Assembly (NCBI GenBank): GCA_934177995.1 | Contig: CAKPPW010000002.1 | Span: forward strand, 16,425-80,424 | DNA from: an uncultured Bacilli bacterium | GTDB taxonomy: Bacteria > Bacillota_I > Bacilli_A > RF39 > UBA660 | Length of the DNA stretch: 64,000 bases | Direction of reading: 5' to 3' | Shown: piece by piece, positions 713-28,189 of the stretch | Numbering within the stretch: position 1 is the stretch's first letter | Layout: each line of letters starts with the position of its first letter | Translations under genes and position numbers: made by a program | The notes under the pieces: model-generated | What the model saw: only the letters and a program-made list of their open reading frames with translations | What the model was told of the DNA's origin: nothing | Database searches by the model: none

Positions 713-737
713 TTAGATACTAGGGGAGGTGGCTTTT

Positions 738-2543: not shown

Positions 2544-2553
2544 GATGATTTAA

Positions 2554-4423: not shown

Positions 4424-4433
4424 AAGGTGAGTT

Positions 4434-5998: not shown

Positions 5999-6029
5999 CG
6001 TTCTCTAAAGAAATTTAGAGGAGGAAGTT

Positions 6030-7343
6030 ATGGGAAAAGTAAATGTAACAAAAAGAGGGAATCTATATCAATATAGATTTGAAATAGCTCCACAAGGGGG
6101 AGTTAGAAAATTTATTAACAAATCAGGTTTCAAGACAAAACAGGATGCTTATGTTGCTGGGATGAAAGCATTTAATGAATATATGAATACAGGTAAAAAA
6201 TTTTCTCCTAATACATGTTCATATTCAGATTTTTTAGATTATTGGATGGCTAATTATTGTCAAATTAATCTAAGATATAATACGATAGAGGCATATAAAA
6301 GCATTATTAAAAATCATGTTAAACCCAAATTAGGATTTTATAGGCTATCGCAAATAGATACAGCTACATTAAATGATTTTCTTACAGATGTGTTTTTGAA
6401 TAAAGGAGTGTCAAAAAACTTTTTAAAAAGTATAATGAAAGTTTTAAAATCTTCATTTGCTTATGCTGAAGATGGTGTTGGATTCATTAAGCATAATCCA
6501 GCGTTGAAAATAAGATTACCAAGATATGATGGTCACGATGAAGATCCAGCTCATATTTTTACACCAGAAGAAATAGAAATGATTTTTAATAGATTTAAAA
6601 ATAGTCATTGTATATATTATGCTTTTTTAACAGCTTATTATACTGGACTGAGAGTTTCAGAAGTATTTGGACTGACATGGGAAGATATTGACTTGAAAAA
6701 TAAGAAATTAACTGTAAATAAAAATATTGTTGAAAAAAATCAAGTAGGTGGAACAAAGCACAGACTTATCAAAGGTCAAAGAACTACTGTTTGGTATTTT
6801 GGACCATGTAAAACAAAAGCTAGCTATAGAACAATTGATATTGGAGATACATTAGTAGCAGCCTTAAAAGAATTTAAAGAAGAGCAAGAAATATATAAAG
6901 AACAATATGGGGATTCATATATCAAACATTATGCAAAAGAAGTTTTAAATCAATATACAAATAAACCAGAAACTAAAATAGTTGATTGCAGTGCAGAAAT
7001 TGATGTTGCTTTACCTGAAGTACATTTGGTATTTATAAAAAATAATGGGGCATTTGAAGGAAATAATACTTGCAAATATCCATTTAAAGTAATTCACTAT
7101 GAGTTAGGAATACCTTGCAGATTTCACGATTTTAGAGATACACACGCAACAAGATTAATTGAAGCAGGAGCAGATATAAAAGCCGTTTCAAAAAGATTAG
7201 GACATAGTACAATTGAAACAACTTATAATATTTATGTAAGAGTTACAATTCAAATGGAAGAAGAAGTAGTTAGTAAATTTGAGGATTATGCAGACTCTTT
7301 AGAAATTACTATTTCAAGAAAACCTACGGAATCAATTTCGTGA
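6030..7343 (+). CDS. int: Tyrosine recombinase / integrase with N-terminal arm-type DNA-binding domain
   Basis: SD GAGGAGGAAG; N-terminus VTKRGNLYQYRFEIA (Tn916-Int-like arm-binding domain); catalytic region YTGLRVSEVFGLTWEDIDL ... HDFRDTHATRLIEAGADIKAVSKRLGHSTIETTYNIYVRV (R..HxxR..H..Y). Confidence 0.9.
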   Translation: MGKVNVTKRGNLYQYRFEIAPQGGVRKFINKSGFKTKQDAYVAGMKAFNEYMNTGKKFSPNTCSYSDFLDYWMANYCQINLRYNTIEAYKSIIKNHVKPKLGFYRLSQIDTATLNDFLTDVFLNKGVSKNFLKSIMKVLKSSFAYAEDGVGFIKHNPALKIRLPRYDGHDEDPAHIFTPEEIEMIFNRFKNSHCIYYAFLTAYYTGLRVSEVFGLTWEDIDLKNKKLTVNKNIVEKNQVGGTKHRLIKGQRTTVWYFGPCKTKASYRTIDIGDTLVAALKEFKEEQEIYKEQYGDSYIKHYAKEVLNQYTNKPETKIVDCSAEIDVALPEVHLVFIKNNGAFEGNNTCKYPFKVIHYELGIPCRFHDFRDTHATRLIEAGADIKAVSKRLGHSTIETTYNIYVRVTIQMEEEVVSKFEDYADSLEITISRKPTESIS

Positions 7344-13007: not shown

Positions 13008-14078
13008 TTAATTTGTATATAATTTACTTAATATTTTTGTATTTTTAATTTTATAGATCAGGTACAAAGTAATAAATAATATTAATATACATATTGCAAT
13101 AGATATAAAATAACTATAGTATATAAAGAAAATTAGATTAACTCCCCATATTAAATTAGCCAATTTAAATAAAATGATAGTTACTATATTATCTATTATA
13201 AAAATGGTATAAGTAAGATAAGTAACAGCTAAAAATACATTCCAAATTATTGACAGATTTGTATAACCAGATAATTTTAGTATAATTATTATTAATATTT
13301 TATCATTAATTAAATCATTTATAAATATGAATAAATTGATTATGAAAAGAAAAATAATTATAAAAATAAATGGTGTTATTATAGATAACAGGCTATTATA
13401 TTCCTTTAACTCAGTTTGATAACTATTATCAAAAAGAGTAGCATTGATATTATGGCTTTTAAATATATTTATTAAATCATCAACTTGTTTTTGTTCGCTT
13501 ACTTTTATTAGAAATTCATTTTCACTATTTTGAATGGTTCTAATTATATTATCTGAAATATAAATTTTATTTTGAAGATTAGAATCTCTCTCTTTATAAA
13601 AGCCAACAATTTTACAAGTTATTTTCTTTTCTTCTATTGATAGAACAATATTAGAATTTAAAATTTCTTTACTTAAATTTTTATATAAAGATTCAGGTAT
13701 AATAATTTCATTATTCTTGTTATTAAATTCTTTTCCATTTTGTATACTGATTTCCTCAGTTGGCAAAATCGGAGTGAGCATTATACTTCCTAATTTTTCG
13801 TTATATATGTTAATGCTTCCTATATAATAGTAAACTTTTTTTATGCCCTTATTTTTTAATATCTCATAAAATTGATCTTCATTTTCTTTGGTACTAAATG
13901 ATGTATAAACTATTCTATTTTCAACTCGATTTTGGAGTTTAGGAATCAAATTCTTTGATATTTGAGCATAGGATTGAATAATTACTATTATAGATAAGAA
14001 CAAACCTGATAATATAATATATGAAATAATTTGTCTTTTACTTAATTTTATGAATTCTTTTAATAATAGTGAATTCAT
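13008..14078 (-). CDS. FtsX/MacB-type ABC permease (second of two)
   Basis: N-terminal TM, about 190-aa extracytoplasmic domain, C-terminal 3-TM bundle; its start ATG directly follows the stop codon of the upstream permease. Confidence 0.7.
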   Translation of the reverse strand: MNSLLLKEFIKLSKRQIISYIILSGLFLSIIVIIQSYAQISKNLIPKLQNRVENRIVYTSFSTKENEDQFYEILKNKGIKKVYYYIGSINIYNEKLGSIMLTPILPTEEISIQNGKEFNNKNNEIIIPESLYKNLSKEILNSNIVLSIEEKKITCKIVGFYKERDSNLQNKIYISDNIIRTIQNSENEFLIKVSEQKQVDDLINIFKSHNINATLFDNSYQTELKEYNSLLSIITPFIFIIIFLFIINLFIFINDLINDKILIIIILKLSGYTNLSIIWNVFLAVTYLTYTIFIIDNIVTIILFKLANLIWGVNLIFFIYYSYFISIAICILILFITLYLIYKIKNTKILSKLYTN

Positions 14079-15296
14079 TTAATTTTTTAGTTCTTCCATA
14101 ATATTATTTTTTTTAAGCTTATTATTAAATATCAGTGATAACAAGACATTTATGATAATGCAGAATGAAATTCCTAGTATTATATTTAATTTTGAAATTG
14201 TTAATTTTAATCCATATAGCATTTCTTCGTTATTCAAATAACAGTTTTGAAAAACAAAAATTAAGAAGAGAGTTATAATTAGTGTTAGAAACAAAGTTAC
14301 TAATATACATAAAAATGATTCAAGGAATTGTAATTTTATAATATCTACTCGATTATACCCAAGTGTTTTTAATATTGCGTATTTTTTATTTCGCTTATAT
14401 TGATTTTTTATTGATATTAAGATGATAACTATGATTGAAATAATCCCCACTAGTAAACCTATCGTTGTAATTAAATTCAAAATTTTATTCCCGATTGTGG
14501 TATCAATTTTTACAACGGGATCTCCATTTGTATAAAAATGATTTTTTTCAAACCTTTTTAAAGTTTCATGAATATCATCTGTGCTTTTAAGTCTAACTAC
14601 TAGAGGATAAATTATTCCTTCTTCTTCTTTAAATGCTTCTGGCTGATAATACAAATTTAAATTTGTTACAATATCTGAATTTGTATAACAAAAATTTTCT
14701 TTTCCTTGTCTCATAGAGGAATCATAAGTTCCAATTAATCTAAAATTTTCTGTTTTAGTATCATCATCAATAAATTTTAAAGAAAATTGCTTTCCTAAAA
14801 GATTATTTAAATTTATTTCTTTTTTTTCTATTTTGTTTTCTTTTTTATATTCATAGAATATATTTTCAGGACATACCATAACTTTATCACTGGAATTATA
14901 ATTATCAATATTTTCCCCATTAGATATTGATATAGTATCTTTTGGTACTCCAAAAAGAAATAAATTGATTTCAGTATCATGATTAAGTCCCTCAAACATT
15001 CTCATATTTATTATGTAGGAAGTATAAGGAGATATAGATTCAATCGTATTGTATGATTGCAATTCTGCTAATGCTTCTTTTTCTGTTTTCTCATCAGGAT
15101 CATAATATACAAAAAATGTACGATAATCCACCATCTTTTTAACGCTTTGATTCCAATAGTTATTTAAACTGTTGGAAAAAACTAAGCAAAATATTGTGAT
15201 TGAAACAGCTATAGAAATAAAAATAATATTAAAATAATTTGCTTTATTTTTGTAAAATTCTTTAATCTCTATTTTTAACATATCAATTAATTTCAT
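14079..15296 (-). CDS. FtsX/MacB-type ABC permease (first of two)
   Basis: Same 1 + ECD + 3 TM topology; ...AILKTLGYNRVDII... within the FtsX-like C-terminal region; overlaps the ATPase gene end. Confidence 0.7.
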   Translation of the reverse strand: MKLIDMLKIEIKEFYKNKANYFNIIFISIAVSITIFCLVFSNSLNNYWNQSVKKMVDYRTFFVYYDPDEKTEKEALAELQSYNTIESISPYTSYIINMRMFEGLNHDTEINLFLFGVPKDTISISNGENIDNYNSSDKVMVCPENIFYEYKKENKIEKKEINLNNLLGKQFSLKFIDDDTKTENFRLIGTYDSSMRQGKENFCYTNSDIVTNLNLYYQPEAFKEEEGIIYPLVVRLKSTDDIHETLKRFEKNHFYTNGDPVVKIDTTIGNKILNLITTIGLLVGIISIIVIILISIKNQYKRNKKYAILKTLGYNRVDIIKLQFLESFLCILVTLFLTLIITLFLIFVFQNCYLNNEEMLYGLKLTISKLNIILGISFCIIINVLLSLIFNNKLKKNNIMEELKN

Positions 15297-15963
15297 CTAT
15301 AATCTCCGTCCTTCCATTTTTTAGGTAAATAATTTCATCAGCATAATCTTTAATGATGTCATCATGACAAATAACGATCACACATTTATCTTGATTTGAG
15401 AGTTTTTTTAATATACTTAAAATTTTAATTGTGTTTTCTTTATCTAAAGAAGCTGTGGGCTCGTCAGCTAATATAATCTCTGGATTATTGCATAGTGCAC
15501 GAGCAATTGCAACTCTTTGTTGTTCTCCACCCGAAAGTTGATTTGGGTAATGCTTATTCCTGTTTTCTATTCCTAATGAATTCAATAAGTTATTGACTCT
15601 TTCAACTTTTTCTTTTTTTGTTAAATTTCTATTAGTATAAAGTGGTAAAATTACATTTTCTGTGACATTCATTGTTGGAATCAAATTAAAAGATTGAAAT
15701 ATATATGCTAATTTCGTTTTTCTAAGATTAGCTATATTTTTTTCTGATAATTTTGATGTATTATGTCCGTCTATTTTTAATGTTCCGCTTGTTGGTTCTA
15801 TAAGAAGCCCAATTATTTGCATTAATGTAGATTTTCCACTTCCAGATTCACCCATAATTCCATACAATTTTCCTTCTTCAAACTTAATATTAATATCATC
15901 TAAAGCGTTTATGCATTTATTTTTAAATGAATATTTTTTTTGTACATTAATTAACTCTATCAC
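15283..15963 (-). CDS. ABC transporter ATP-binding protein (MacB/LolD-like)
   Basis: Walker A GESGSGKST, signature LSGGEQQRVAIARAL, Walker B ILADEPT; GTG start. Confidence 0.9.
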   Translation of the reverse strand: MIELINVQKKYSFKNKCINALDDINIKFEEGKLYGIMGESGSGKSTLMQIIGLLIEPTSGTLKIDGHNTSKLSEKNIANLRKTKLAYIFQSFNLIPTMNVTENVILPLYTNRNLTKKEKVERVNNLLNSLGIENRNKHYPNQLSGGEQQRVAIARALCNNPEIILADEPTASLDKENTIKILSILKKLSNQDKCVIVICHDDIIKDYADEIIYLKNGRTEIIDEIN

Positions 15964-17181: not shown

Positions 17182-17237
17182 ATAGTTTATTTTAATTTAT
17201 TTATGTATTCGGATGTAGAAATGGAGGAATGTTAATT

Positions 17238-17714
17238 ATGAAAAAAGTAGTATTTATAATTTTGTGTATGGCAGTTTTTATGCCGTTTGCAGTTGAAGCT
17301 AAGACTTGTGAGTATGGGATGCCATCACCACCAATATACTATAATGGAAATTGGGCTTATGGACAAGTAATAAATTTTAAGACGTCAGCATCATCATGTC
17401 TAGCTGATAATATGTATGTTTATTTTAGTAATGGTAATTATTTATCCACTTTTAATTTTACCATAGAGGCTTATTTAATGGAAAAAGATAAAGATCCTAA
17501 TCCAGATGATAAAGCTAAACTATATTTTGGTTACAATTCAGGTTATAGTTTAATGAACTGGACTTTACAACAAAAATTTGATGGTAATTTAGATAGTGCT
17601 GGAGATCAAACTTGTGAGTTGTATATGAAATTTAGATTAAAAGAGCCGTTAGCACATAATAATTTTGAATACCTTGACAGCGATATGTTTAGATATACAA
17701 TATGCATGGATTAA
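17238..17714 (+). CDS. Secreted 4-Cys protein, family copy A (paralog of 25921..26421)
   Basis: ORF track 17229..; ATG 17238 after GGAGGAA; signal peptide ...AVEA|KT; conserved with the paralog: CE.G, KT.AS.C, VYFSN, YLME.D, GDQTCELYM.F, Y.ICM. Confidence 0.75.
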   Translation: MKKVVFIILCMAVFMPFAVEAKTCEYGMPSPPIYYNGNWAYGQVINFKTSASSCLADNMYVYFSNGNYLSTFNFTIEAYLMEKDKDPNPDDKAKLYFGYNSGYSLMNWTLQQKFDGNLDSAGDQTCELYMKFRLKEPLAHNNFEYLDSDMFRYTICMD

Positions 17715-18258: not shown

Positions 18259-18287
18259 TTGACTAATATTTGATTAAATGTTAATAT
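18259..18287 (+). promoter_or_regulatory. Sigma-A promoter
   Basis: TTGACT 18259-18264, 17-nt spacer, TAATAT 18282-18287. Confidence 0.6.
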
Positions 18288-18300
18288 TATTATGACAAAT

Positions 18301-18369
18301 GAATACGGTGTATTTTCGGTGTTAATTATATATAGACCTTGGTTGGTTTTTTATAGTTAACACTTTTTT
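18301..18369 (+). terminator. Conserved hairpin-terminator element, copy A (leader attenuator candidate)
   Basis: GAATACGGTGTATTTTCGGTGTTAATTA ... TTAACAC + TTTTTT; stem GTGTTAA/TTAACAC; lies about 10 nt after the predicted start site and about 210 nt before the first gene; related to copy B at 20271-20334. Confidence 0.5.
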
Positions 18370-18576
18370 ATTACCTAATATTTATTTTATATGTCCGGAC
18401 TATAAATAAAATATGGTATTTATATCTATTGTGTTCAATTGTCAATCATTTTATTTGATATTATGATTGAAACGGACTTGAATACGGTATTTTAAATCTT
18501 TCTATATATTAGATAAAAAATTTAATATTTAAGCAATTTTTTAATATTCTAACAAAAGCAGCAACAGGAGATCCAT

Positions 18577-18792
18577 ATGTATACAATGTACGAACCTACA
18601 GGGAATATAATAGGTTATATTCAACCTCATGATTTCTATGTTAGATATCTGGTTAGTAGCCCTAGTATGGATAATGTTCATAGAGTTGTGTTTAATGATG
18701 GTAAAGATGTTAAAATAGGTTATATAAGAGAACAGTATGTTTTACCTAGTATGACTTTAAATCCTACTGATGATGAAGCAGTAAAAGCATAA
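18577..18792 (+). CDS. Hypothetical 71-aa protein (5' part of an ORF split by one in-frame TAA)
   Basis: SD ACAGGAGAT; same frame as 18796..19131, separated only by TAA-ATA. Confidence 0.5.
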   Translation: MYTMYEPTGNIIGYIQPHDFYVRYLVSSPSMDNVHRVVFNDGKDVKIGYIREQYVLPSMTLNPTDDEAVKA

Positions 18793-18795
18793 ATA

Positions 18796-19131
18796 TTGGT
18801 AGGTTATGAACCATTCACTTGTGTAGAATATGATCAAGCTTCTGATGAATATATACTGCATAAATGGAAAGATACACCATCAAGAGAAATCTATATTAAT
18901 AAACTAGTCCCTTATTTTAATGCCCAATGGTCTTATGTAGGGATGCTTAATAAAGGTGATTATATAAAAATAAATAGAGGTAATTTTATTAATCCAGGGT
19001 ACACAAGACCATGGACAAATCGTATAGATGGAATTAAGAAAAAAGGTAGTATTTCATTTACTAGTTTTTCTGGTTATGCAATTATTGGAATTGAGTACGC
19101 TAGTCAAGGATATGAAAGAGCTTGGTATTAG
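18796..19131 (+). CDS. Hypothetical 111-aa protein (3' part of the split ORF)
   Basis: TTG start with no SD of its own; N-terminus GYEPFTCVEY echoes YEPTGNIIGY of the upstream part. Confidence 0.45.
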   Translation: MVGYEPFTCVEYDQASDEYILHKWKDTPSREIYINKLVPYFNAQWSYVGMLNKGDYIKINRGNFINPGYTRPWTNRIDGIKKKGSISFTSFSGYAIIGIEYASQGYERAWY

Positions 19132-19219
19132 AAAACTATCATTAGATATTATCAAGTATAATATAATATGATATAATAGTTTTGGTGATTAAGCTGAAAA
19201 TATAATTATACTTTTACTT

Positions 19220-19414
19220 TTGATATTATGTGTATGTGGATGTGAAAATAACAATCAATATACAGATTTTAAACATTATGATTTAAGGAATTATGATATT
19301 ACTAATAAATATTCCTATGTAGATGATGATTATATATATTATAATGGAAGTACTAGTATTTCTAGTTCAATTGAAGTTGTCAAATGTTCTAGAAATAGTT
19401 ATAAATGTCAATAA
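19220..19414 (+). CDS. Small Cys-rich, possibly lipoprotein-like peptide; start unclear
   Basis: Frame open from 19193 (AENIIILLLLILCVCGCENN...). TTG 19220 gives too short a signal peptide; ATA/ATT codons at 19202-19210 would give a hydrophobic leader; TGATATAAT promoter at 19168-19176. Confidence 0.3.
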   Translation: MILCVCGCENNNQYTDFKHYDLRNYDITNKYSYVDDDYIYYNGSTSISSSIEVVKCSRNSYKCQ

Positions 19415-19449
19415 TAAAATACCAAACTAAAACTATTATCATGATTAAT

Positions 19450-19485
19450 AAAGAAAATGCTTGATATGCATTTTCTTTATTTTAT
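19450..19485 (+). terminator. Rho-independent terminator
   Basis: AAAGAAAATGC-TTGATAT-GCATTTTCTTT followed by a T-rich tail. Confidence 0.7.
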
Positions 19486-19497
19486 TTATAGGCGAGG

Positions 19498-20256
19498 ATG
19501 GTGATTAAAATTAAACTTGTAACTAAAATATTTAAAAGAAATGATTGGTATGTAACTTCACCTTTTGGAAGTAGAAATCCAATTAAAACTAAAAAAGGTA
19601 TAACCACCAGCTTTCATAATGGATGCGATTATGGAACTAATGGAGAAAAGTGGGGACAATATGCTTTAGAAAATGGCAAAATTTTATCTTGTGGAATCGC
19701 TTCTGATGGAGCTAAATATATATGGGTAAATTATCCAAGAATCAATAAAAAAATTTTGCACTACCATTTAGATAGTATTTGTGTAAAAACGGGGCAAGAA
19801 GTTCATGAGGGATTATTACTTGGCTATACAGGTTCAACTGGTATGGCTACAGGAATTCATTTACATTTAGGAATGAAAAATAGTAATGGTGGAGACTATG
19901 AAGATCCACATAATTATGATTACCAGTTAAATAACATTAATCATTCTGAGACATCTAAAATGGATTTAATAAAAATTGCTTATGAAGTAATTGCAGGGAA
20001 ATATGGTAATGGAAAGACTAGAATTGATAAACTTACTAATATGGGATATAATGCAAGTGATGTTCAAAAGATAGTAAATGAAATAAAAAATAAAGAGCTA
20101 AAACGGACAAATTTTTACATAGTAAAAAAAGATGATACTCTAATAAAAATAGCTAAAAAATTTGGAACAACATGGGAAAAATTATATGAATTAAATAGAG
20201 ACATTATAGGTAATGATCCTGATTTAATTAAAATAGGTCAAATATTGAAATACTAG
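19498..20256 (+). CDS. Signal-less M23 peptidase + CW_7 (Cpl-7-like) + LysM murein hydrolase (endolysin-like)
   Basis: HNGCDYG and GSTGMATGIHLHLGM (M23 HxxxD/HxH); IAYEVIAGKYGNGKTRIDKLTNMGYNASDVQKIVNEI (CW_7-like); YIVKKDDTLIKIAKKFGTTWEKLYELN (LysM); no signal peptide. Confidence 0.8.
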   Translation: MVIKIKLVTKIFKRNDWYVTSPFGSRNPIKTKKGITTSFHNGCDYGTNGEKWGQYALENGKILSCGIASDGAKYIWVNYPRINKKILHYHLDSICVKTGQEVHEGLLLGYTGSTGMATGIHLHLGMKNSNGGDYEDPHNYDYQLNNINHSETSKMDLIKIAYEVIAGKYGNGKTRIDKLTNMGYNASDVQKIVNEIKNKELKRTNFYIVKKDDTLIKIAKKFGTTWEKLYELNRDIIGNDPDLIKIGQILKY

Positions 20257-20270
20257 TAAAAAAAATTTAT

Positions 20271-20334
20271 AATTACGGTAATTTATTCGGTGTTAATTAG
20301 TATATAATTTTTTATATTGATTAACACCTTTTTT
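20271..20334 (+). terminator. Conserved hairpin-terminator element, copy B
   Basis: AATTACGGTAATTTATTCGGTGTTAATTA...ATTAACACC + TTTTTT; 9-bp stem 20289-20297/20320-20328. Confidence 0.65.
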
Positions 20335-20389
20335 ATATTTGTTAAAGAGTAGATGTTTTAAGTCAATTTTATAAAGAGAGGGGAAGAAA

Positions 20390-20824
20390 ATGAAACAAGT
20401 TCTTGATAAAATAATTAGTTTTTTGTTATATTTTTTGCTTTTTCTATTTGGAAGTTTTGATTTTATGTTAAAAACTTTATTGTCTTTAATGTTTATAGAT
20501 TATATAACAGGTGTAAGTAGAGCATTTATTACAAAAAAGGTTAATAGCAGTATAGGAGGTAAAGGAATTATAAAAAAAGCAGTATACTTATGTGTTGTTG
20601 CAGTAGCAGTAATATTAGACAATTTATTGGAAGTAAACGGAGGTTTAAGAGCTTTAATTATATATTCATTTATTTTTAACGAAATGTTATCAATTTTAGA
20701 AAATAGTAGTGCTATGGGAATCAAAGTTCCTAATATTTTATATAAATCACTTGAAAAATTAAATAAAGATCAAAATGAAAATGATAAAGAAATAGTAAAA
20801 AGTGAAGAATCAAAGCATAAATAA
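20390..20824 (+). CDS. Holin, toxin-secretion/phage-lysis family (TcdE/UviB-type, Phage_holin_4_1)
   Basis: SD AGAGAGGGGAAG; 3 TM; LLSLMFIDYITGVSRAFITKKVNSSIGGKGIIKKAVYL and FNEMLSILENSSAMGIKVP align by eye to the conserved TcdE-family core. Confidence 0.8.
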   Translation: MKQVLDKIISFLLYFLLFLFGSFDFMLKTLLSLMFIDYITGVSRAFITKKVNSSIGGKGIIKKAVYLCVVAVAVILDNLLEVNGGLRALIIYSFIFNEMLSILENSSAMGIKVPNILYKSLEKLNKDQNENDKEIVKSEESKHK

Positions 20825-21146
20825 TGTTGCTAATACTTTAGCAGTGTATAAAAAAGTCGAATTTTATTGTATAATATCTATGATAGCAAGGCAAAAATGC
20901 CAAGTATTTATATTAAGAAATGTGATGGTGAAATAATAATAAAAAGAAACTAGTTAAGTAGTAAGAAGTAAAAAGTAGTATAATACACTTTCTATTCTTA
21001 CTGTAGATACTAGTTTATATATGCAAAAAAATTGTGTAGTATTTATTTTTTGCTTTATATGAATTGCTTTTATGGAGCGATTATTATGGAACTAGAAAAG
21101 TATTATACATATTTTTTAGTAAGAAAAGATAGTATATTAAATCATA

Positions 21147-21196
21147 AAAAGACTATATTCTTTGCTCTAAAGGCTAATAAGAAATATAGTCTTTTT
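21147..21196 (+). terminator. 13-bp-stem hairpin in the long holin-regulator intergenic region
   Basis: AAAAGACTATATT-23 nt-AATATAGTCTTTT, T-run at the 3' side and A-run at the 5' side (bidirectional type). Confidence 0.5.
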
Positions 21197-21240
21197 CAAT
21201 TTATAAAAATACTTTTTCTTAGGGCAAGAAGTCCTCCCGT

Positions 21241-21276
21241 TCCTATCAATTTAATAAAAAATTTAAATTGATAGGA
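21241..21276 (+). promoter_or_regulatory. 14-bp perfect inverted repeat overlapping the SD of the sigma-r4 regulator gene
   Basis: TCCTATCAATTTAA-TAAAAAAT-TTAAATTGATAGGA; the right arm contains the first bases of SD TAGGAGGAAG for ATG 21287. Confidence 0.55.
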
Positions 21277-21286
21277 GGAAGAAATT

Positions 21287-21763
21287 ATGGGTAAGTTCCC
21301 AAAAAGAAGAAAAAGTAAGGATAATCCGTATACACTTGGATTTGATGAAATAAAAAAGACTTATACTATTTCATTTAAAGATGTGAATAACATTATTCAA
21401 GTGATTGAAATAAATGAATTGTTATATAAAGAGTTCAATAAGTTTGAATTAGAAGATTTATCTGAAATGAATGAATATGATAATCATATTGAGCACTCAG
21501 AACTTTATGAAGAAACTTTATATAAAAGATCTTTTAATAAAGATATATCAATAGAAGACAATATTGAAACTAAATTAATGGTAGAACTATTAAACATTTT
21601 TATAGAAGAATTACCAACTATACAAAAAAATAGATTAAAAAAGTATTATATAGAACACAAAACATATGAAAAAATAGCAATAGAAGAAGGATGCACAAAA
21701 AGAGCAGTAAAATTTAGTATAGATATTGCAATTCAAAAATTATCAAAAAAATTTAAAAATTAG
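21287..21763 (+). CDS. Sigma-70 region-4-type HTH regulator (mobile-element sigma-like protein)
   Basis: C-terminal LPTIQKNRLKKYYIEHKTYEKIAIEEGCTKRAVKFSIDIAIQKLSKKF is a region-4 HTH; N-terminal KRRKSKDNPYTL motif recalls sigma-like proteins of clostridial conjugative transposons; no clear region 2. Confidence 0.55.
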   Translation: MGKFPKRRKSKDNPYTLGFDEIKKTYTISFKDVNNIIQVIEINELLYKEFNKFELEDLSEMNEYDNHIEHSELYEETLYKRSFNKDISIEDNIETKLMVELLNIFIEELPTIQKNRLKKYYIEHKTYEKIAIEEGCTKRAVKFSIDIAIQKLSKKFKN

Positions 21764-21792
21764 ACTACACAAAACATATTTAAGTTAGGAAA

Positions 21793-21824
21793 CAAGTGAA
21801 AGGGATATAATACTCTTTCACTTG
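21793..21824 (+). terminator. 10-bp-stem hairpin after the regulator gene
   Basis: CAAGTGAAAG-12 nt-CTTTCACTTG; weak T tail. Confidence 0.45.
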
Positions 21825-21884
21825 CTATCCAAAAATTTTATAAGCTAATTTTAAAAGATTTAGTGTTTAATAGTCAAAATCATA

Positions 21885-22070
21885 ATGAAAAAATTTACAG
21901 TAGAAATAAATCAACTAAAATCACTTTCTTTTGAAGTAAATGCAAAAAACAAAAAAAGTGCAAGACAAATGATTACCGATTTTATCAATAAAGTAGATTT
22001 AAACAATTTGAATTTAAATTGCTTAAAAAAAGAAAATGTTAAAGTGGTTGTAAATAGGTTAAGAAAATAA
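21885..22070 (+). CDS. Hypothetical 61-aa basic protein
   Basis: ORF track; weak SD. Confidence 0.4.
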   Translation: MKKFTVEINQLKSLSFEVNAKNKKSARQMITDFINKVDLNNLNLNCLKKENVKVVVNRLRK

Positions 22071-22088
22071 AAGAACGGAGATGAAAAA

Positions 22089-22424
22089 ATGGCATATGTA
22101 AAAAGAGTACCACCAATTAAGTTAATTCTTACAAAGAAAGAATATAACACTCTTATAGGTATTTTAACAAAAAATGTGGATGAAAATAATGATGCAACAG
22201 CTAGAGAATTATCAATTAATACTAAAGAAAAATTATTAAAATATAGTATACCACATGAATTAAATGAGAACGATGTAGAGATTGATGTAAGATTATATTT
22301 AAATGAGGCAGCAGATATTATAACTGAGTTATTATTATATAATGTAAAAAGAATTAACGAGATAAATTATTATGAAGTTTTGATAAAAGTTAGAGAATCA
22401 TTTGTAAATCATACTGACGATTAA
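22089..22424 (+). CDS. Hypothetical 111-aa protein
   Basis: SD ACGGAGATGA; no motif recognised. Confidence 0.55.
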   Translation: MAYVKRVPPIKLILTKKEYNTLIGILTKNVDENNDATARELSINTKEKLLKYSIPHELNENDVEIDVRLYLNEAADIITELLLYNVKRINEINYYEVLIKVRESFVNHTDD

Positions 22425-22523
22425 ATTAGTATTAAATCTTTTAAAAATGTAATTAAAAATTTGGAAAGCTTAGATGTACTAAAAATTTGCATTAAAAATT
22501 TAATATTTAAGGAGATGAAAAAA

Positions 22524-24947
22524 ATGGCAAATAATGAAGTAGTAGGAGATCCATATGTATTTTATACACAAAAATGGTTAAATGATACTTATGGAAATGA
22601 CAGTAGATTTAATACTGTTACAGAAAATGGTAAAACAGGATGGGCTACCATTTATGCTTTAACAAGAGCATTACAAATTGAATTAGGAATTCAATCAACA
22701 GCTGATAATTTTGGAAATGGAACACAAAAAGCATTTAAAACTCAATATCCTAATGGTGTACAGCAACAATCATCAGATGATAAAACAAAGAAGAACATTT
22801 ATGGAATCATCCAAGGAGCACTATTATGCAAAGGATATGCAATAGGTGCTAACACACCTACCTGTAATTTTTACGGAGGAACAGGTGGCGCAATAAAGAA
22901 ATTAAAAGCAGATGCAGGATTAACAGATACAAGTTCGACAGTAACATTGAATATAATGAAAGCATTATTATCAATGGATTATTTTTATTCTTATGATACA
23001 TCAACAAGAACTCAAAATATTATTAGTATGCAAAGATATCTAAATAGAAATTATGAAGCATATATTGGAATTAGACCTTGTGATGGAGTATATTCTCGTA
23101 GAACAAGTCAAGCATTGATATATGCAATTCAGGCAGAAGAGTGTATGCCTACTTCAGTAGCTAATGGTAACTGTGGACCATCTACAAAGCGTTGTCTACC
23201 AACATTATCAGTAACTGGATCATCATCAGGAACTAGTTATAAGGGACAAGCATATTCAACTGCTAGTTTAAATAAATTTAAAACTTTAGCAAATATAGCA
23301 TTATATTTTAATGGATTTGGTTCAGGAGAATTAACATCTAATTTAGACGAAAATACTATAACAAGTTTTCAAACTAAGTACTCTATTTTAGCGACTGGGA
23401 AAATAGATTATACAACATGGTTATCTCTATTAATTAGCTGTGGAGATACAGATAGAAGTGCTAGTGCATGTGATTGTGCTACTATTTTAACACCAGCAAA
23501 AGCAAAAACTTTGTATGATAATGGTTATCTTCGAGTTGGAAGATACTTATCTGGATATATTGCAAGTGGAGCAAGTAAAGCATTAACAAAAAAAGAATTG
23601 CAAATTGCTGCTGACGCAGGATTATATATTTTCCCAATTCATCAATCAAGTGCTAACAAGGTTTCATATTTTACAACTGCAAATGCAGTAAAAGATGTAG
23701 ACAGTGCTTTTGAACATGCAAATGCACTAGGTATGCCTAGTGATACTAGTATTTATTTTGCAGTCGATTGTGATCCTTTAGATACAGAAATAACCTCTAA
23801 TATTATTCCATATTTTACAACAATAAATAATATAATGAAAAGTAAGTATAATAATAAATACCCTGTTAGTATATATGGAACAAGAAATGTTTGTACGAGA
23901 GTTAGTAATAAAGGCTTAGCAAAATACAGTTTTGTTAGTGATATGTCAACAGGATTTAGTGGAAATTTAGGATTTCCTATTCCAGATAATTGGGCATTTG
24001 ACCAATTTGCAACCGTTACTGTTGGATCTGGAGATGGTAAGATTGAAATTGATAAAGATGCAATGTCTGGTAGGGATCTTGGATTAATAGGTGATTTATA
24101 TTTAAAGGATTATGGGAAGGTATATTATAATTTAGTTGATATGTATAATTTAGCATTAGATTATACTAATAACAATGAAGAAAAAAGTAATTTATTAGTT
24201 TTACAATATCTCAGAAAGGGACGCTATGGTGATACATCTATTTTTTGTGGTGATTCATTATCGGGAGATGCCTCAATTATTAAGTGGGAAATTGTAGCTG
24301 GTACTATAGACAAAGGATATTGTAATTTAGTAGACAGCAAATTATATAATTTGAATTTTGATTTTGTGGATTCATCTGTAAATCCTACTACATCACATGA
24401 TTTACCACACTTGGCAGCTACTCTAAATTCGTTGCTATACCAAATTGGAAATGATGATTTAAGAGGTTTCGATGAATTAGTTGATTGTTACTCTGGATGG
24501 GCAGGAGATACAATTTCGTATGCAGATTCAATTCAAAAAGCCGTGAAAGATGGATTAACTACTGATTATGTTAAATGGGCGAAAGATAATATTTGTACCC
24601 CAAACGAAGCACATTTTAACCTTCAAGATTATATTGATGATATTGATGCATATAATTTATACCATATGATTAAATTTAAAGGGTATACTCTGCCAGAAGC
24701 GTTTTACTTTTATTATGTTTTATCATCATTAGAAACTCATAAATATGAGTATGAGAAAAGAGCAAGCAGATTTTTAAATTATATGTCAACATCTCATTTC
24801 ATTGATCTTTGTGAGTTAATAAATTCTGATGAAACTCCTATAAAACAGTTAAAGAGAACATTAAGTAAAGCTGAACAAAAATATATTGATGCAGCAATAG
24901 ATGCATTTAAATCATTTATATTCAAGGAATATGTAGAAGGAAGATAA
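22524..24947 (+). CDS. Large signal-less murein hydrolase: PG_binding_1-type repeats + DUF1906 (Rv2525c-like glycoside-hydrolase fold) + unknown C-terminal region
   Basis: ORF track 22461..; ATG 22524 is 9 nt after GGAG. YTQKWLNDTYG...GKTGWATIYALTRALQIELGI and further PG-binding-like repeats; DUF1906-like LYDNGYLRVGRYLSG...GLYIFPIHQSS...IYFAVDCDP...IYGTRNVC; last ~290 aa unassigned; N-terminus MANNEVVGDPYVF has no signal peptide. Confidence 0.7.
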   Translation: MANNEVVGDPYVFYTQKWLNDTYGNDSRFNTVTENGKTGWATIYALTRALQIELGIQSTADNFGNGTQKAFKTQYPNGVQQQSSDDKTKKNIYGIIQGALLCKGYAIGANTPTCNFYGGTGGAIKKLKADAGLTDTSSTVTLNIMKALLSMDYFYSYDTSTRTQNIISMQRYLNRNYEAYIGIRPCDGVYSRRTSQALIYAIQAEECMPTSVANGNCGPSTKRCLPTLSVTGSSSGTSYKGQAYSTASLNKFKTLANIALYFNGFGSGELTSNLDENTITSFQTKYSILATGKIDYTTWLSLLISCGDTDRSASACDCATILTPAKAKTLYDNGYLRVGRYLSGYIASGASKALTKKELQIAADAGLYIFPIHQSSANKVSYFTTANAVKDVDSAFEHANALGMPSDTSIYFAVDCDPLDTEITSNIIPYFTTINNIMKSKYNNKYPVSIYGTRNVCTRVSNKGLAKYSFVSDMSTGFSGNLGFPIPDNWAFDQFATVTVGSGDGKIEIDKDAMSGRDLGLIGDLYLKDYGKVYYNLVDMYNLALDYTNNNEEKSNLLVLQYLRKGRYGDTSIFCGDSLSGDASIIKWEIVAGTIDKGYCNLVDSKLYNLNFDFVDSSVNPTTSHDLPHLAATLNSLLYQIGNDDLRGFDELVDCYSGWAGDTISYADSIQKAVKDGLTTDYVKWAKDNICTPNEAHFNLQDYIDDIDAYNLYHMIKFKGYTLPEAFYFYYVLSSLETHKYEYEKRASRFLNYMSTSHFIDLCELINSDETPIKQLKRTLSKAEQKYIDAAIDAFKSFIFKEYVEGR

Positions 24948-24960
24948 AATATAACTAAGG

Positions 24961-24998
24961 ATAGTTAATTGATTAAATTAATCAATTAACTATTTTTT
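24961..24998 (+). terminator. Strong rho-independent terminator
   Basis: ATAGTTAATTGATTAA-A-TTAATCAATTAACTAT perfect palindrome followed by TTTTTT. Confidence 0.8.
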
Positions 24999-25025
24999 AT
25001 GGTATAATATTAGTGGTGAGCAATT

Positions 25026-25700
25026 ATGTTAAACTTTTCAAAAAAATATATTGCTGTTATTATATTGAGTATAATTATTTTTCTTACATTATATTTTTGT
25101 TGGATATTTTTGTTAAAAAAAGAATACAACTATAAAAGTGGGGAAATTAGAATTTATCAATATAATGATAAAATAAAAGTATCTGATTTAGATTCTCTCT
25201 TTTTGGATTCTTTAAATGTAAATAATAATTATTTGTCTTTTTATGATGATGCGATTATTCAAATAAATAAAAATGACCTTCGTAAGCGTGCCATTGGAGA
25301 AGTATCAGTATTTGCTAAATATGATTCTATAGAAAATTTAGTTCTATTTTTAAAGGAAAATGGAGTAGAAATTCAATCTAATCTAATATTAGAAAATCGA
25401 AGAATAATTATATATAGCAATGGAAAAACAGTGTGTATTTTATTTTTTGAATCTGATAATAAAGTTAGATTAAATTTTAGGACAGAATTACCATATAAAA
25501 TATCCAATATGTACACAAGTGATGATGAATTTGAAAATTATTTTTTAAAAATAAATGCAAAAACTCACTTATCAATAAAAGAACAATTAAAATATAATTT
25601 TATAAAGATAGCCATTGTAATAGTTTGCTTTAATTTAATTTGTTTGGTATTTCTTACATTAAAAGAATTAATAATAATAAAAAAGTGTAAAAAAAAGTAA
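25026..25700 (+). CDS. Bitopic membrane protein (N- and C-terminal TM), hypothetical; possible immunity or accessory factor
   Basis: TGGTATAAT promoter at 25000-25008; TMs IAVIILSIIIFLTLYFCWIFLL and IAIVIVCFNLICLVFLTL. Confidence 0.6.
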   Translation: MLNFSKKYIAVIILSIIIFLTLYFCWIFLLKKEYNYKSGEIRIYQYNDKIKVSDLDSLFLDSLNVNNNYLSFYDDAIIQINKNDLRKRAIGEVSVFAKYDSIENLVLFLKENGVEIQSNLILENRRIIIYSNGKTVCILFFESDNKVRLNFRTELPYKISNMYTSDDEFENYFLKINAKTHLSIKEQLKYNFIKIAIVIVCFNLICLVFLTLKELIIIKKCKKK

Positions 25701-25920: not shown

Positions 25921-26421
25921 ATGAGAAAAAAGATTATAATGTTTGGTGTTTTTCTAGTTGGACTATTTTTTGCAGGAAATTTTAATGTTTATGCAAGAGA
26001 GTGCGAATGGGGATTACAAGCTCCTCAAATACCACAAGGTTATGCAGAGAATAGAGGTCATATTGTAAGCTTAAAAACAACAGCAAGTGCCTGTAAAGGA
26101 GTCAATACTGCCGTTTATTTTTCCAACTTTGGAAGTTTACCAAATTGGTATACACCAAGTTCTGGAACAATTGTACATGGGTATTTGATGGAAGATGATC
26201 CTCCAGCATATGAACCAGATGAAAGAGTTAAATATTACATTGGTTTTTTTACTGGAAGGGTATTAACAGATTTTCAGCTTAATAAAACAATTACTCCTGG
26301 AAATATTGATAGTGAAGGAGATCAAACTTGTGAATTATATATGAATTTCTCAATTTCTGGAACGACAGGTGGTACTCCTATTCCACAGGGATTATTCTAT
26401 TATGGAATTTGTATGAATTAA
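25921..26421 (+). CDS. Secreted 4-Cys protein, family copy B (paralog of 17238..17714)
   Basis: SD AGAAGGAGGTGA; signal peptide ...NVYA|RE; shares CEWG, KTTASAC, VYFSN, YLMEDD, GDQTCELYMNF, YGICMN with copy A. Confidence 0.75.
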   Translation: MRKKIIMFGVFLVGLFFAGNFNVYARECEWGLQAPQIPQGYAENRGHIVSLKTTASACKGVNTAVYFSNFGSLPNWYTPSSGTIVHGYLMEDDPPAYEPDERVKYYIGFFTGRVLTDFQLNKTITPGNIDSEGDQTCELYMNFSISGTTGGTPIPQGLFYYGICMN

Positions 26422-26460: not shown

Positions 26461-27309
26461 ATGAAAAAAAGTGGAATTGTAGTAATTTGTATATGTATAG
26501 TTGTTTTACTAATAGGTATACTTACTGTTCATGCTCAATCAAATAATAAAAAACTTATAGTAGATAGTGAATTAGGATATACAGAACGCAGTGTTTTTGA
26601 TGAACTAGAAGATGGATGGGTATATGGCTTTGAGATAATTTATGCAGATGAGGACCAAACTATTAATTATATCTTTGATGGTTATAATTTAAAACATAAG
26701 CCAGAAGGTACAGAATATTATATATCATATAAGAATATGGAAACAGGCGAAGAGATTGAAAGAATACCATCGAAGTATGCAACATTATCTACTTCAGAAA
26801 AATTCAGAGATGAAATAAAGGAAATTAACAATTTTTTCAATAACAAAAAATTTGTAAGAGAAATCACATTGAATGACTTAGATACATTAAATGTTACAAA
26901 AATAAGTAAAAGTTATTTAGTTGATTTATTTAACAGAACAATAAATTCGCAAATGAAAAGTAATCCAGGCGAGTATATTAAAGCACCATCTTTAGAATAT
27001 AAAACGCAAAAGTCTTCTGATGTTAATAAACCTGGTGAATGGCAAGTTATGTATATTATTGACTATGGATATATAAATAATATTGAAATAGAATTTATTC
27101 CTGAAAATAAAACAGAAGTTGCTTCATTTAATAGTTATTCGGTTCAAAGAAAGCAAGAAACAGCAGAATTGGAAAAATTAGAAAAAGAAATAATAGAAAA
27201 GCAAAGTACTTCTTCGAAAGATTTGATAGAATCTGATTCCGTTTTAACTAACAACTCTGATTTAGGTAGTTTATTAGATAACATATATAATGATATATTA
27301 AATAAATAA
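26461..27309 (+). CDS. Secreted/anchored hypothetical protein following 4-Cys protein B
   Basis: SD GGAGGTGAAAG; signal/anchor IVVICICIVVLLIGILTVHA. Confidence 0.65.
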   Translation: MKKSGIVVICICIVVLLIGILTVHAQSNNKKLIVDSELGYTERSVFDELEDGWVYGFEIIYADEDQTINYIFDGYNLKHKPEGTEYYISYKNMETGEEIERIPSKYATLSTSEKFRDEIKEINNFFNNKKFVREITLNDLDTLNVTKISKSYLVDLFNRTINSQMKSNPGEYIKAPSLEYKTQKSSDVNKPGEWQVMYIIDYGYINNIEIEFIPENKTEVASFNSYSVQRKQETAELEKLEKEIIEKQSTSSKDLIESDSVLTNNSDLGSLLDNIYNDILNK

Positions 27310-27357: not shown

Positions 27358-27436
27358 TGAAATAGTATAATATGATTAATAGTAAGCTTAAAATTAAAAT
27401 AAACACTTATATAAATTGGAAAAGGGAGAACAAATA

Positions 27437-28189
27437 ATGAAAAAAATTACTATTAAAATTTTTATACTGCTATTATTTTTAGTATGTTTATTTTTCTTGA
27501 TTTTAAAATTTTATCCATTTGGTAGCAAAGTATATATTTCAGATTCCGTTGAAATAAACATTCCGATTTTTTCTAAGGTGGTAGAAAAGAAAGAAAATTA
27601 CATTGTATTGAAGACATTTAGAAGTAAATATATTATTCAGAATGAATTAGAAAAAATTTTTGAAGAATATGAAAAATATAATTGTAATTTGTCCGATACT
27701 ATTTATTATAATGAGAAGAATAATTATTCAATATTGTCATATAACTTCGAAAGAAAAGGTTTTTATAATAAAATTATAATCAATTATAAGGTTGGGAAAG
27801 TTGATAATAATTTTTGTGGAAAAATTGTTGATTATAAAAAGTTAAAATATAAAATATTGCCTATTAATGATACAGGCTACTGTTATATTCCAGATTCTTT
27901 TAGTATTAAAGACTATACTATTAACTATAATTGTTTCGGAAATTTAGCAATAGAAAATGGTATGGGGAAAATGATATATTTTGATCAAATTTTATCATAT
28001 GGTTGGTTAGAAATTTCTGATTTTTTGCAGTTTTTAGAATATCAGGCAGAAAAAGGGAAATTTAATATATATAGTTATAATAATGATGTTTTATATCATG
28101 GAAACGACTTTGATGTACTTTACTGTAAAACTTCAAAAAAAATTTATGTAGATAAGGAAATTGAGATGAATGAAAATATTTGTAAATAA
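27437..28189 (+). CDS. N-terminally anchored hypothetical protein
   Basis: ORF track 27416..; ATG 27437 after AAGGGAGAA; TM IFILLLFLVCLFFLIL. Confidence 0.6.
   Translation: MKKITIKIFILLLFLVCLFFLILKFYPFGSKVYISDSVEINIPIFSKVVEKKENYIVLKTFRSKYIIQNELEKIFEEYEKYNCNLSDTIYYNEKNNYSILSYNFERKGFYNKIIINYKVGKVDNNFCGKIVDYKKLKYKILPINDTGYCYIPDSFSIKDYTINYNCFGNLAIENGMGKMIYFDQILSYGWLEISDFLQFLEYQAEKGKFNIYSYNNDVLYHGNDFDVLYCKTSKKIYVDKEIEMNENICK

Follow-up and report, generated by a model that had tools for sequence, protein, structure and literature searches.

A gene cluster resembling the bacteriolysin Bac41 on an integrative conjugative element of an uncultured gut Bacilli lineage

Gene content of the locus

The window analysed here is the whole stretch of 64,000 nucleotides taken from contig CAKPPW010000002.1. 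Its host is an uncultured, low-GC gut "Bacilli/Mollicutes" lineage of metagenome-assembled genomes, not Clostridium. The window is an integrative conjugative element (ICE), and its cargo includes a cluster of genes for a peptidoglycan endopeptidase, a holin, a regulator, an 807-amino-acid (aa) protein of the BacA family and a bitopic membrane protein. The core of the cluster, with its open reading frames (ORFs), is as follows.

19498–20256, + strand: M23 + CW_7 + LysM peptidoglycan endopeptidase, leaderless (Pfam, NCBIfam, PHROGs)
20390–20824, + strand: TcdE-type holin, Phage_holin_4_1/TIGR01593 (Pfam, NCBIfam)
20825–21286, + strand: structured leader of the regulator gene (folding, comparison across loci)
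21287–21763, + strand: 158-aa regulator with a sigma-70 region-4-like helix-turn-helix (HTH) and a family-specific N-terminal domain
21885–22070 (61 aa) and 22089–22424 (111 aa), + strand: two small conserved ORFs (phmmer, position)
22524–24947, + strand: 807-aa BacA-family effector (Pfam, blastp, AlphaFold2, Foldseek)
25026–25700, + strand: 224-aa bitopic membrane protein, with transmembrane (TM) segments at aa 1–19 and 188–206 and an ectodomain of about 165 aa

The original prediction had called an M23 + CW_7 + LysM hydrolase, a TcdE-family holin and a peptidoglycan (PG)-binding plus DUF1906 protein, and searches with Pfam and NCBIfam hidden Markov models returned the same domains. The first gene matched Peptidase_M23 (E-value 2.7e-10), CW_7 (1.2e-15) and LysM (1.7e-12), and it keeps both M23 catalytic motifs, HxxxD at aa 40 and HxH at aa 121. 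The holin matched Phage_holin_4_1 in Pfam (E-value 3.8e-35) and scored 106.6 bits against a cut-off of 40.2 for the NCBIfam model TIGR01593, "toxin secretion/phage lysis holin". Both hydrolases had been described as signal-less. Their N-termini are indeed not hydrophobic, with maximum 10-residue Kyte-Doolittle scores of 1.33 and 0.66 in the first 40 aa, and secreted neighbours reach at least 2.8 on the same score. The proposed bitopic topology of the 224-aa protein agrees with a hydrophobic segment at each of its ends. The 460-bp gap before the regulator gene, predicted to be structured, folds better than its shuffles (z = -5.8; 0 of 100 shuffles as good). Terminator-like hairpins lie on either side of the M23 gene (19447–19481 and 20289–20328).

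Relationship to Bac41 and to clostridial loci

By sequence comparison, the closest known system is the bacteriolysin Bac41 of Enterococcus faecalis, not PaLoc or pIP404. On E. faecalis plasmids the gene order starts with a peptidoglycan amidohydrolase of 595 aa and a BacL2-family protein, continues with a phage holin family protein and a hypothetical protein, and ends with a 726-aa glycoside-hydrolase-domain protein and a 180-aa membrane protein. This gene set is the Bac41 determinant, with bacL1, bacL2, bacA and bacI. Two secreted effectors, BacL1 and BacA, act together to lyse E. faecalis; BacL2 regulates positively, and immunity comes from BacI, whose gene lies downstream of bacA. This literature leaves the activity of BacA undefined (bioRxiv 10.1101/2020.11.20.391417; PMC13532309; PMC11808071; PMC9951850).

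The window and Bac41 share a BacA-family effector, and the 807-aa protein (aa 9–520) showed 43.5% identity over 526 aa to Bac41 BacA (blastp, E-value 2e-115). Both loci encode a Phage_holin_4_1 holin (E-value 1.4e-16 for the Bac41-locus holin), and the two holins are 31% identical (E-value 3e-8). Both have a separate peptidoglycan hydrolase, a dedicated regulator and a membrane protein gene directly downstream of the effector gene. The effectors of the window lack a signal peptide, as do BacL1 and BacA, and each locus is carried by a conjugative element. The genes stand in a different order. In the window that element is an ICE from an uncultured gut Bacilli lineage, whereas Bac41 is on a pheromone plasmid (pYI14-type) of E. 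faecalis. The holin is unmentioned in the three Bac41 papers searched for the word, a search that did not extend to the primary Bac41 papers.

The architecture had originally been compared with PaLoc and with the uviA-uviB-bcn locus of pIP404. A large leaderless effector, a holin, an endolysin-like gene, a sigma-like regulator and a mobile element are common to these loci and the window. The window holin falls in the TcdE family (TIGR01593), as in PaLoc, whereas UviB is a BhlA-type holin. The PaLoc cargo consists of glucosyltransferase toxins, and the Pfam domains of the 807-aa protein differ from these. BCN5 of pIP404 differs as well, being an MpaA-like amidase with SH3b domains (PMC9527704); an assignment of BCN5 as a DUF1906 protein was rejected on that account. 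A 9.25-kb plasmid of C. baratii encodes a 749-aa homologue of the 807-aa protein beside divergent UviA-like sigma and BhlA/UviB genes, and therefore the pIP404 comparison has a real bridge. This part of the earlier comparison stands, and for the rest PaLoc and pIP404 are analogies, not members of the same family.

The 807-aa effector and its C-terminal domain

The 807-aa protein comprises PG_binding_1 repeats (aa about 10–305), an Rv2525c/GH25-like TIM barrel (aa about 315–515; Rv2525c_GlyHyd-like, DUF1906, Pfam E-value 8.3e-46) and an all-alpha C-terminal domain with a single hairpin (aa about 520–807), which carries the precomputed annotation PF27189 "YkzU". AlphaFold2 models built from 74 and 68 homologues had mean-confidence pLDDT values of 91.2 and 91.7. 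In Foldseek searches, the middle domain matched Rv2525c (E-value 1e-6) and also GH25 muramidases. The top PDB match of the C-terminal domain was TelC (5UKH; E-value 0.22, probability 0.66, TM-score about 0.35), and all its other matches had probabilities of at most 0.08. H629 is invariant in this domain, D626, D706, D708 and R746 are nearly invariant, and a conserved Asp-rich motif, DYxADIDAVN, is present.

TelC of Streptococcus intermedius, a largely alpha-helical protein, is a lipid II phosphatase that depends on calcium and has an Asp-rich calcium/active site; it is toxic only when it acts from outside the cell, and TipC neutralises it (PMC5555719). TelC-family domains fused to PG-binding domains (PGBD) and Rv2525c-like barrels are described in Bacillota and are read as parts of conflict systems (Burroughs et al. 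2025, PMC12419801). These Prok-TelC proteins probably have the same domain architecture as the window effector, with no accession matched to the window protein. An all-alpha toxin domain, an Asp-rich motif, an expected action outside the membrane and a rapidly evolving gene downstream are further points in common. TelC itself is an LXG protein that a type VII secretion system (T7SS) exports, whereas the window has no LXG domain or T7SS genes and has a holin instead. The published Prok-TelC associations (paired Ig domains, 3TM-CCDN, VanY) are mainly from Actinomycetota, and that paper does not connect them with holins, M23 enzymes, regulators or ICEs (PMC12419801). Judged from the structural match and the published architecture, the C-terminal domain is probably TelC-like in function.

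The original prediction of a cell-wall-degrading bacteriocin is kept in one respect, since the cluster is homologous to Bac41, an experimentally proven secreted bacteriolysin system. It changes in another, as the 807-aa cargo is probably not just a murein hydrolase and would carry a separate, TelC-like toxin domain.

The C-terminal domain is rare. An exhaustive search among 1.84 billion sequences gave 84 representatives, and a word-indexed search with the domain alone gave 3 matches. Ten of the 84 proteins were scanned; none had an LXG domain, and in one of them the domain follows a RicinB lectin N-terminus. The BacA family as a whole has more than 2,700 homologues. In two plasmids that were inspected, from E. 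faecium (L005) and L. plantarum (pEM9, L001), a window-type C-terminus was found. In both, a gene for a small membrane protein comes next after the effector gene, and the annotation shows no holin in the vicinity.

Polymorphic C-termini and the putative immunity gene

The comparison set consisted of 44 genomic loci encoding relatives of the window proteins, cited here by L numbers. One of them, L011, is an element 93–94% identical to the window, and its two BacA-like paralogues are about 80% identical at the nucleotide level as far as codon 516 and share nothing beyond it (blastn). Proteins with other C-termini show up to 78% identity in the N-terminal two thirds, and full-length homologues with the window C-terminus (type A) mostly show 45–65% and at most 74%. 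At least 12 C-terminal clusters were found among 53 proteins. The Bac41 type is related to the C. baratii/Gardnerella type and not to type A or to type B, the second C-terminal type of the window. The C-terminus is all-alpha and probably TelC-like in the window and has no TM-like segments, whereas that of BacA has hydrophobic, TM-like segments (aa 684–721). Both Bac41 BacA (L004:4998-7178) and the C. baratii homologue (L002:6178-8427) end in hydrophobic, TM-like, Gly/Ala-rich segments that recall the hydrophobic C-terminus described for BCN5. These sequences suggest a membrane-inserting C-terminal type distinct from that of the window.

A same-strand ORF of at least 80 aa lies within 250 bp downstream in 27 of the 43 non-redundant effector genes, and most of these ORFs have 1–5 predicted membrane segments. 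Each downstream family occurs with one C-terminal type only. Wherever two loci have a downstream family in common (17 pairs), their C-terminal types agree as well (permutation mean 3.4); none of 20,000 permutations reached 17, in a statistic that ignores shared ancestry. Among effector loci, homologues of 25026–25700 were found only downstream of type A C-termini. The effector family thus presents the arrangement of polymorphic toxin-immunity systems: a conserved N-terminal part, variable C-terminal domains and a cognate gene directly downstream. Pfam searches with ten candidate immunity proteins gave nothing significant.

Orphan copies of the 224-aa gene were also found. In chromosomal contigs L069-71, a copy with 92% aa identity (gene 6001-6684; window equivalent 24989-25695) adjoins secA without an effector gene. 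In L017:10001-12378, the 224-aa gene is kept behind a shortened, frameshifted effector gene. Clustering at 90% identity gave 110 variants of the 224-aa protein and 31 of the effector. Retention of a downstream gene without its effector is classic immunity-gene behaviour. Because the 224-aa gene goes with one C-terminal type and persists in orphan copies, 25026–25700 is a candidate immunity protein for the type A C-terminal domain. The orphan copies are stronger evidence of immunity than the co-variation statistics. The immunity role that had been suggested as a possibility for this gene fits its behaviour, and the C-terminal domains themselves would be toxic.

One further feature lies between these two genes.

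24944–25010: inverted repeat with 33-nt arms, between the effector and immunity genes

In L008, a sister element 99.9% identical to the window, an integrase gene and prophage-like genes (L008:12485-22424) are inserted at window-equivalent position 25007, within the inverted repeat. The inserted genes include those for a repressor-like HTH protein, a single-stranded DNA-binding protein (SSB) and NinB, among others.

The M23 lysin, the holin and release

The M23 enzyme recurs in the cluster of L011, L012, L019, L020, L059-61 and L066. By analogy, 19498–20256 is a candidate lysin partner of the 807-aa protein, in the functional place of BacL1. The holin is kept beside BacA-like genes in L016, L019, L020, L059-61 and L066. 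The recurring order is holin, leader of about 0.3–0.45 kb, 158-aa regulator, (61-aa ORF) and 111-aa ORF, usually accompanied by the M23 enzyme. This module was seen in L011, L016, L019, L020, L059-61 and L066, whose proteins are only about 45–75% identical.

How the effector would leave the cell can be read in two ways. In a Bac41-type system with export, the signal-less proteins would pass through the holin. In a colicin-like alternative, the holin and the M23 enzyme would lyse a fraction of the producers and so free the 807-aa toxin, everything else being equal. The holin and the endolysin-like gene stand side by side, which is what such lysis would use, and the multi-layer control of the regulator described below (terminator plus hairpin) would suit a lethal function. 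Both modes are left open for holin-linked clostridial bacteriocins (PMC9527704). Lytic and non-lytic release look alike in sequence, and in Bac41 BacL1 acts on target cells (bioRxiv 10.1101/2020.11.20.391417), which speaks against the colicin-like alternative. We consider lytic release rather unlikely and favour a Bac41-type system with putative export through the holin.

The regulator and its structured leader

The leader contains a promoter-like extended -10 element (TGTATAAT, about 20866–20875), a terminator-like hairpin (about 21149–21196) and a hairpin that would sequester the Shine-Dalgarno (SD) sequence (about 21243–21280). The promoter, the terminator and the anti-SD hairpin are kept with compensatory changes in L016, L019, L020 and L012. 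An SD-pairing hairpin precedes every regulator gene of the 158-aa family examined (window, L012, L016, L019, L020, L021), and its sequence covaries between loci. An Rfam search with 20825–21286 gave no family match. The leader may be an undescribed element of translational and attenuation control. A 61-aa ORF called in the gap by gene callers (21086–21271) was considered as a coupling peptide and rejected, as it is not conserved.

The 158-aa regulator has the N-terminal motifs PKRRKxKDNPY and FELxDxSxMNEYDxHIEHSE. Its Pfam matches are weak and below gathering thresholds (Sigma70_r4_2, 1.8e-4; Sigma70_r4, 7e-3), and NCBIfam sigma models cover only its C-terminal half, from about model position 66-86 on. 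Profile comparison with UviA (hhalign) aligned region 4 only (aa 100–185 of UviA, probability 84%). The regulator has no recognisable sigma region 2, and group-5 sigma factors are defined by regions 2 and 4. The earlier call of a sigma-70 region-4-type regulator is therefore right as to the HTH; the sequences place the protein in a very large ICE regulator family and outside the TcdR/UviA family. Model NF041508 matches BacL2 (E-value 5e-79) and not the window regulator, and hhalign of the regulator against BacL2 gave a probability of 0.2%.

The regulator family has at least 4,216 members, and a tblastn search of 72,556 plasmids with the regulator gave only 2 weak matches. Four of six sampled contexts were ICE end modules, with the order divergent HTH_3 gene, regulator, small ORFs, PemK-like gene, and integrase or serine recombinase; an excisionase-like HTH_17 gene was present in three of these four. 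The regulatory module of Tn916 has the order orf9-orf7-orf8-xis-int. The likeness to it is positional only, with the regulator-family members placed after a divergent HTH_3 gene and before small ORFs, HTH_17 and integrase. L016, L020 and L066 each carry two regulator paralogues, one in the end module and one linked to the holin, and therefore the holin-linked copy is read as a recruited paralogue of the ICE regulator.

The two small ORFs that follow the regulator gene had phmmer matches in L016, L019 and L020 (E-values 1e-32 to 1e-37) and also in L021. Genes of 62 and 111 aa occupy the same position in L059-61, and a 108-aa gene does so in L066. They always follow the holin-linked regulator paralogue, and a conserved hairpin lies between the regulator and these ORFs. 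Their products may act as a co-regulator or chaperone. Because it directly follows the regulator and the small ORFs, the 807-aa gene is probably co-transcribed with them.

The ICE setting and the phage question

The genes that mark the window as an ICE include the following.

6030–7343: tyrosine integrase
42429–44372: VirD4
46183–48594: VirB4
48596–50404: CHAP hydrolase, in the type IV secretion system (T4SS) module
61289–63019: relaxase

Genes for a primase, a VirB6-like protein, PrgI and ArdC are also present. The cluster had been placed in ICE cargo free of phage structural genes; a scan of roughly 40 of the 62 window ORFs that reach 100 aa or more gave no phage structural or packaging family. 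Its description as a non-phage cluster also agrees with where the family occurs. Relatives of the 807-aa protein were found by tblastn in 565 of 72,556 plasmids and in 2 of 50,697 phage genomes. The plasmids were mainly from Enterococcus (384) and Lactiplantibacillus (72; 456 together). A pattern scan of the 2.9 million contigs of IMG/VR gave 2 loci with the 807-aa family. Among the 25 commonest neighbour families per survey around the 41 loci, phage structural genes were absent except for two weak Terminase_4 matches. A megablast of the cluster against the plasmid and phage collections gave almost no matches, and the exact 807-aa sequence is present in 99 blocks of a public assembly collection, human-gut metagenome contigs included.

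These results bear on the reading of the M23 and holin genes as a leftover phage lysis cassette, with the 807-aa protein as an endolysin-like autolysin; the cluster would then be decaying debris or an autolysis module with no competitive role. In its favour, PHROG matches link the holin and the M23/CW_7/LysM protein to phage holins and endolysins and the 807-aa protein, along its whole length, to phrog_15213; there is a decayed paralogue upstream, and the sister element has its prophage-like insert right after the 807-aa gene. Yet the 807-aa family is nearly absent from phage genomes and IMG/VR, the scanned ORFs hold no phage structural genes, and the exact sequence recurs across the assembly collection. 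Loci with proteins that are no more than 50–60% identical keep the module whole and in synteny, and a co-varying downstream gene with orphan copies fits a toxin-immunity pair and not a lysis cassette. We regard the phage-remnant explanation as improbable.

The cluster might otherwise serve the ICE itself. Its hydrolases and holin would remodel or breach the wall for conjugation, or lyse an induced sub-population of donors for DNA release under an Orf7-like regulator. The location inside an ICE, the normal place of the regulator family in ICE end modules with excisionase, integrase or recombinase genes, and the ability of holin-endolysin pairs to lyse cells agree with this. Against it, the T4SS module has its own CHAP hydrolase, and the M23, holin and regulator genes are missing from L014-type ICE variants, whose flanks are about 92–94% identical. 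The 807-aa protein also has full-length homologues at chromosomal sites and on 5–10 kb plasmids typed as non-mobilizable by PLSDB, and mating does not explain polymorphic C-termini with cognate downstream genes and orphan copies. A service to the ICE is very improbable in our view, and the mating aid offered as an alternative in the original prediction is accordingly judged unlikely. The Bac41-type reading is retained below.

Several other genes were noted around the cluster. A MacB/FtsX-type ABC transporter (an ATPase and two permease-like genes) is encoded at 13008–15963 on the minus strand. The same transporter type occurs near the BacA-like clusters of diverged loci (L016:4690-7533, L020:6722-9663, L066:1-1657), and it could be an additional resistance or export function. 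Paralogous genes for small secreted Cys-containing proteins lie on both sides of the cluster (17229–17714 and 25921–26421), followed on the right by genes for secreted proteins of 282 aa (26461–27309) and 257 aa (27416–28189). These genes accompany BacA-like genes in about 11–15 related loci, and they may simply be ICE backbone. Left of the integrase, 729–5513 contains genes for a dockerin protein, a cohesin/cadherin-like protein and an NAGPA (phosphodiester glycosidase) protein. TelC-NAGPA combinations in other Bacillota conflict systems are mentioned in the lipocone paper (PMC12419801).

A decayed second pair and the upstream promoter region

Three features lie upstream of the M23 gene.

18385–18536, + strand: promoter/operator region of bacA-like genes (alignment of 8 diverged loci, promoter scan)
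18537–19131, + strand: remnant of a second ("type B") BacA-like effector gene (phmmer, blastn deletion map)
19182–19414, + strand: what is left of the gene that followed the type B effector (about 295 bp lost internally)

The small ORFs at 18537–19414 had been left anonymous in the original prediction. Those at 18577–19131 match the C-terminus of an intact 755-aa paralogue in L011 (L011:4022-6289, phmmer). About 1.66 kb of the type B gene, encoding roughly 550 N-terminal aa, is deleted, so that only the C-terminal domain is left. An extra CAA-to-TAA nonsense change is present at 18790–18792, where L006 and L008-L010 have CAA. The ORF at 19220–19414 matches a 182-aa protein with an N-terminal TM segment in L011 (L011:6340-6888) and also has matches in L020 and L021; by sequence, 19182–19414 is a candidate remnant of the type B immunity gene. 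Because the window has two deletions and a nonsense change compared with the L011 DNA, 18537–19414 reads as the wreck of a second effector/downstream-gene pair. A direct repeat, D1, relates 18513–18582 to 22491–22560.

The preceding region has an invariant palindrome, TGTCCGGAC, at 18392–18400, which occurs once in the window and lies 145–153 nt before the BacA-like start in L014, L015, L016, L019 and L020. It is followed by a sigma-70-like promoter (TTGTCA-17-TATGAT, 18439–18467), direct repeats ACGG-N10-ACGGTATTTT (18472–18493) and a conserved 5' leader. This arrangement is common to BacA-like genes with their own promoter, and in the window it is left only before the decayed type B copy, where mutations have altered the ribosome-binding site and start codon (AAGGAGATG to AAGCAATTT). 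Conservation of the promoter/operator region is high across L014, L015, L016, L019, L020, L059 and L066, although the coding regions are only 50–60% identical.

Interpretation and significance

We interpret the cluster as ICE cargo encoding a Bac41-type (class III, bacteriolysin) interbacterial weapon, with a probability of roughly 0.6. A number of results weigh against this interpretation. The lysin, regulator and immunity candidate of the window are not homologous to BacL1, BacL2 and BacI: the lysin has M23 + CW_7 + LysM domains, whereas BacL1 has Phage_lysozyme + Amidase_5 + SH3_5 and shares no blastp similarity with it. The type A and Bac41-type C-terminal domains are unrelated at profile level (hhalign probability 0.1%), and BacA itself has never been seen to hydrolyse peptidoglycan (bioRxiv 10.1101/2020.11.20.391417). 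In structure the match to TelC is a weak one, and a sequence profile search of the PDB with the C-terminal domain did not find TelC; such searches with three C-terminal types gave nothing useful. The permutation statistic takes no account of common descent, and most sampled contexts of the regulator family are ICE end modules. A Phage_holin_4_1 gene lies within 2.5 kb in only 6 of 41 homologous loci, and the effector and downstream genes occur without holin, M23 or regulator genes in the ICE variant L014, in chromosomal L055 and on small L. plantarum plasmids. Because many homologous loci lack a holin and some have the effector and immunity genes only, the holin cannot be a general requirement.

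In the proposed mechanism, the 807-aa BacA-family protein would be the killing protein. Its PG-binding repeats and GH25-like barrel would bind, and perhaps cut, the target wall. Its C-terminal domain, probably a TelC-like calcium-dependent enzyme, would act on the membrane's outer face and destroy lipid II or related undecaprenyl-linked precursors there. The M23/CW_7/LysM enzyme would take the role of BacL1 and open the peptidoglycan of the target, or the producer's own wall during release. Both signal-less proteins would exit the cytoplasm via the TcdE-type holin, and the 25026–25700 product would neutralise the toxin domain at the producer surface. The sigma-r4-like regulator, a paralogue of the ICE end-module regulator, would gate expression, and its mRNA leader would add a terminator and a sequestered ribosome-binding site to this control. 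The second effector-immunity pair upstream has decayed. The data show the homologies, the conserved gene order, the near-absence from phages, the polymorphic C-termini, the co-variation with the downstream gene and the orphan copies of that gene; release via the holin, lipid II as the target, joint action of the two enzymes and the targets of the regulator are inferred.

We further propose, tentatively and at somewhat less than even odds, that the BacA family consists of polymorphic leaderless toxins of Gram-positive bacteria that are sometimes exported by holins. The N-terminal part would deliver the protein to the wall, and a swappable C-terminus would be lethal (TelC-like in the window, membrane-inserting in Bac41), each type having its own membrane immunity protein.

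This kind of system is already known experimentally from Bac41, and the effector architecture is already known computationally from the lipocone paper (PMC12419801). New here is an M23 lysin combined with a TcdE-type holin, a regulator of ICE origin that has a structured leader, a BacA variant that is probably TelC-like, and a bitopic candidate immunity protein. Also new are the occurrence of this set on an ICE from an uncultured gut lineage, the evidence of a polymorphic BacA family with cognate and orphan immunity genes, and the link between Bac41 and the TelC/lipocone work.

If the Bac41-type interpretation is correct, a widespread ICE of uncultured human and animal gut Bacilli would arm its host with a two-enzyme envelope weapon, which bears on strain competition in the gut. 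It would join two fields that do not cite each other, the genetics and biochemistry of Bac41 and the computational work on lipocone/TelC proteins, and it would add another candidate for holin-mediated protein export outside phages. It would also give a testable idea of BacA-type function. Hundreds of hospital plasmids from E. faecium, and food plasmids from Lactiplantibacillus, encode the same architecture. The polymorphic-toxin proposal, if true, would account for the long-undefined role of BacA in Bac41 and would provide a T7SS-independent delivery route for lipid II-degrading enzymes.

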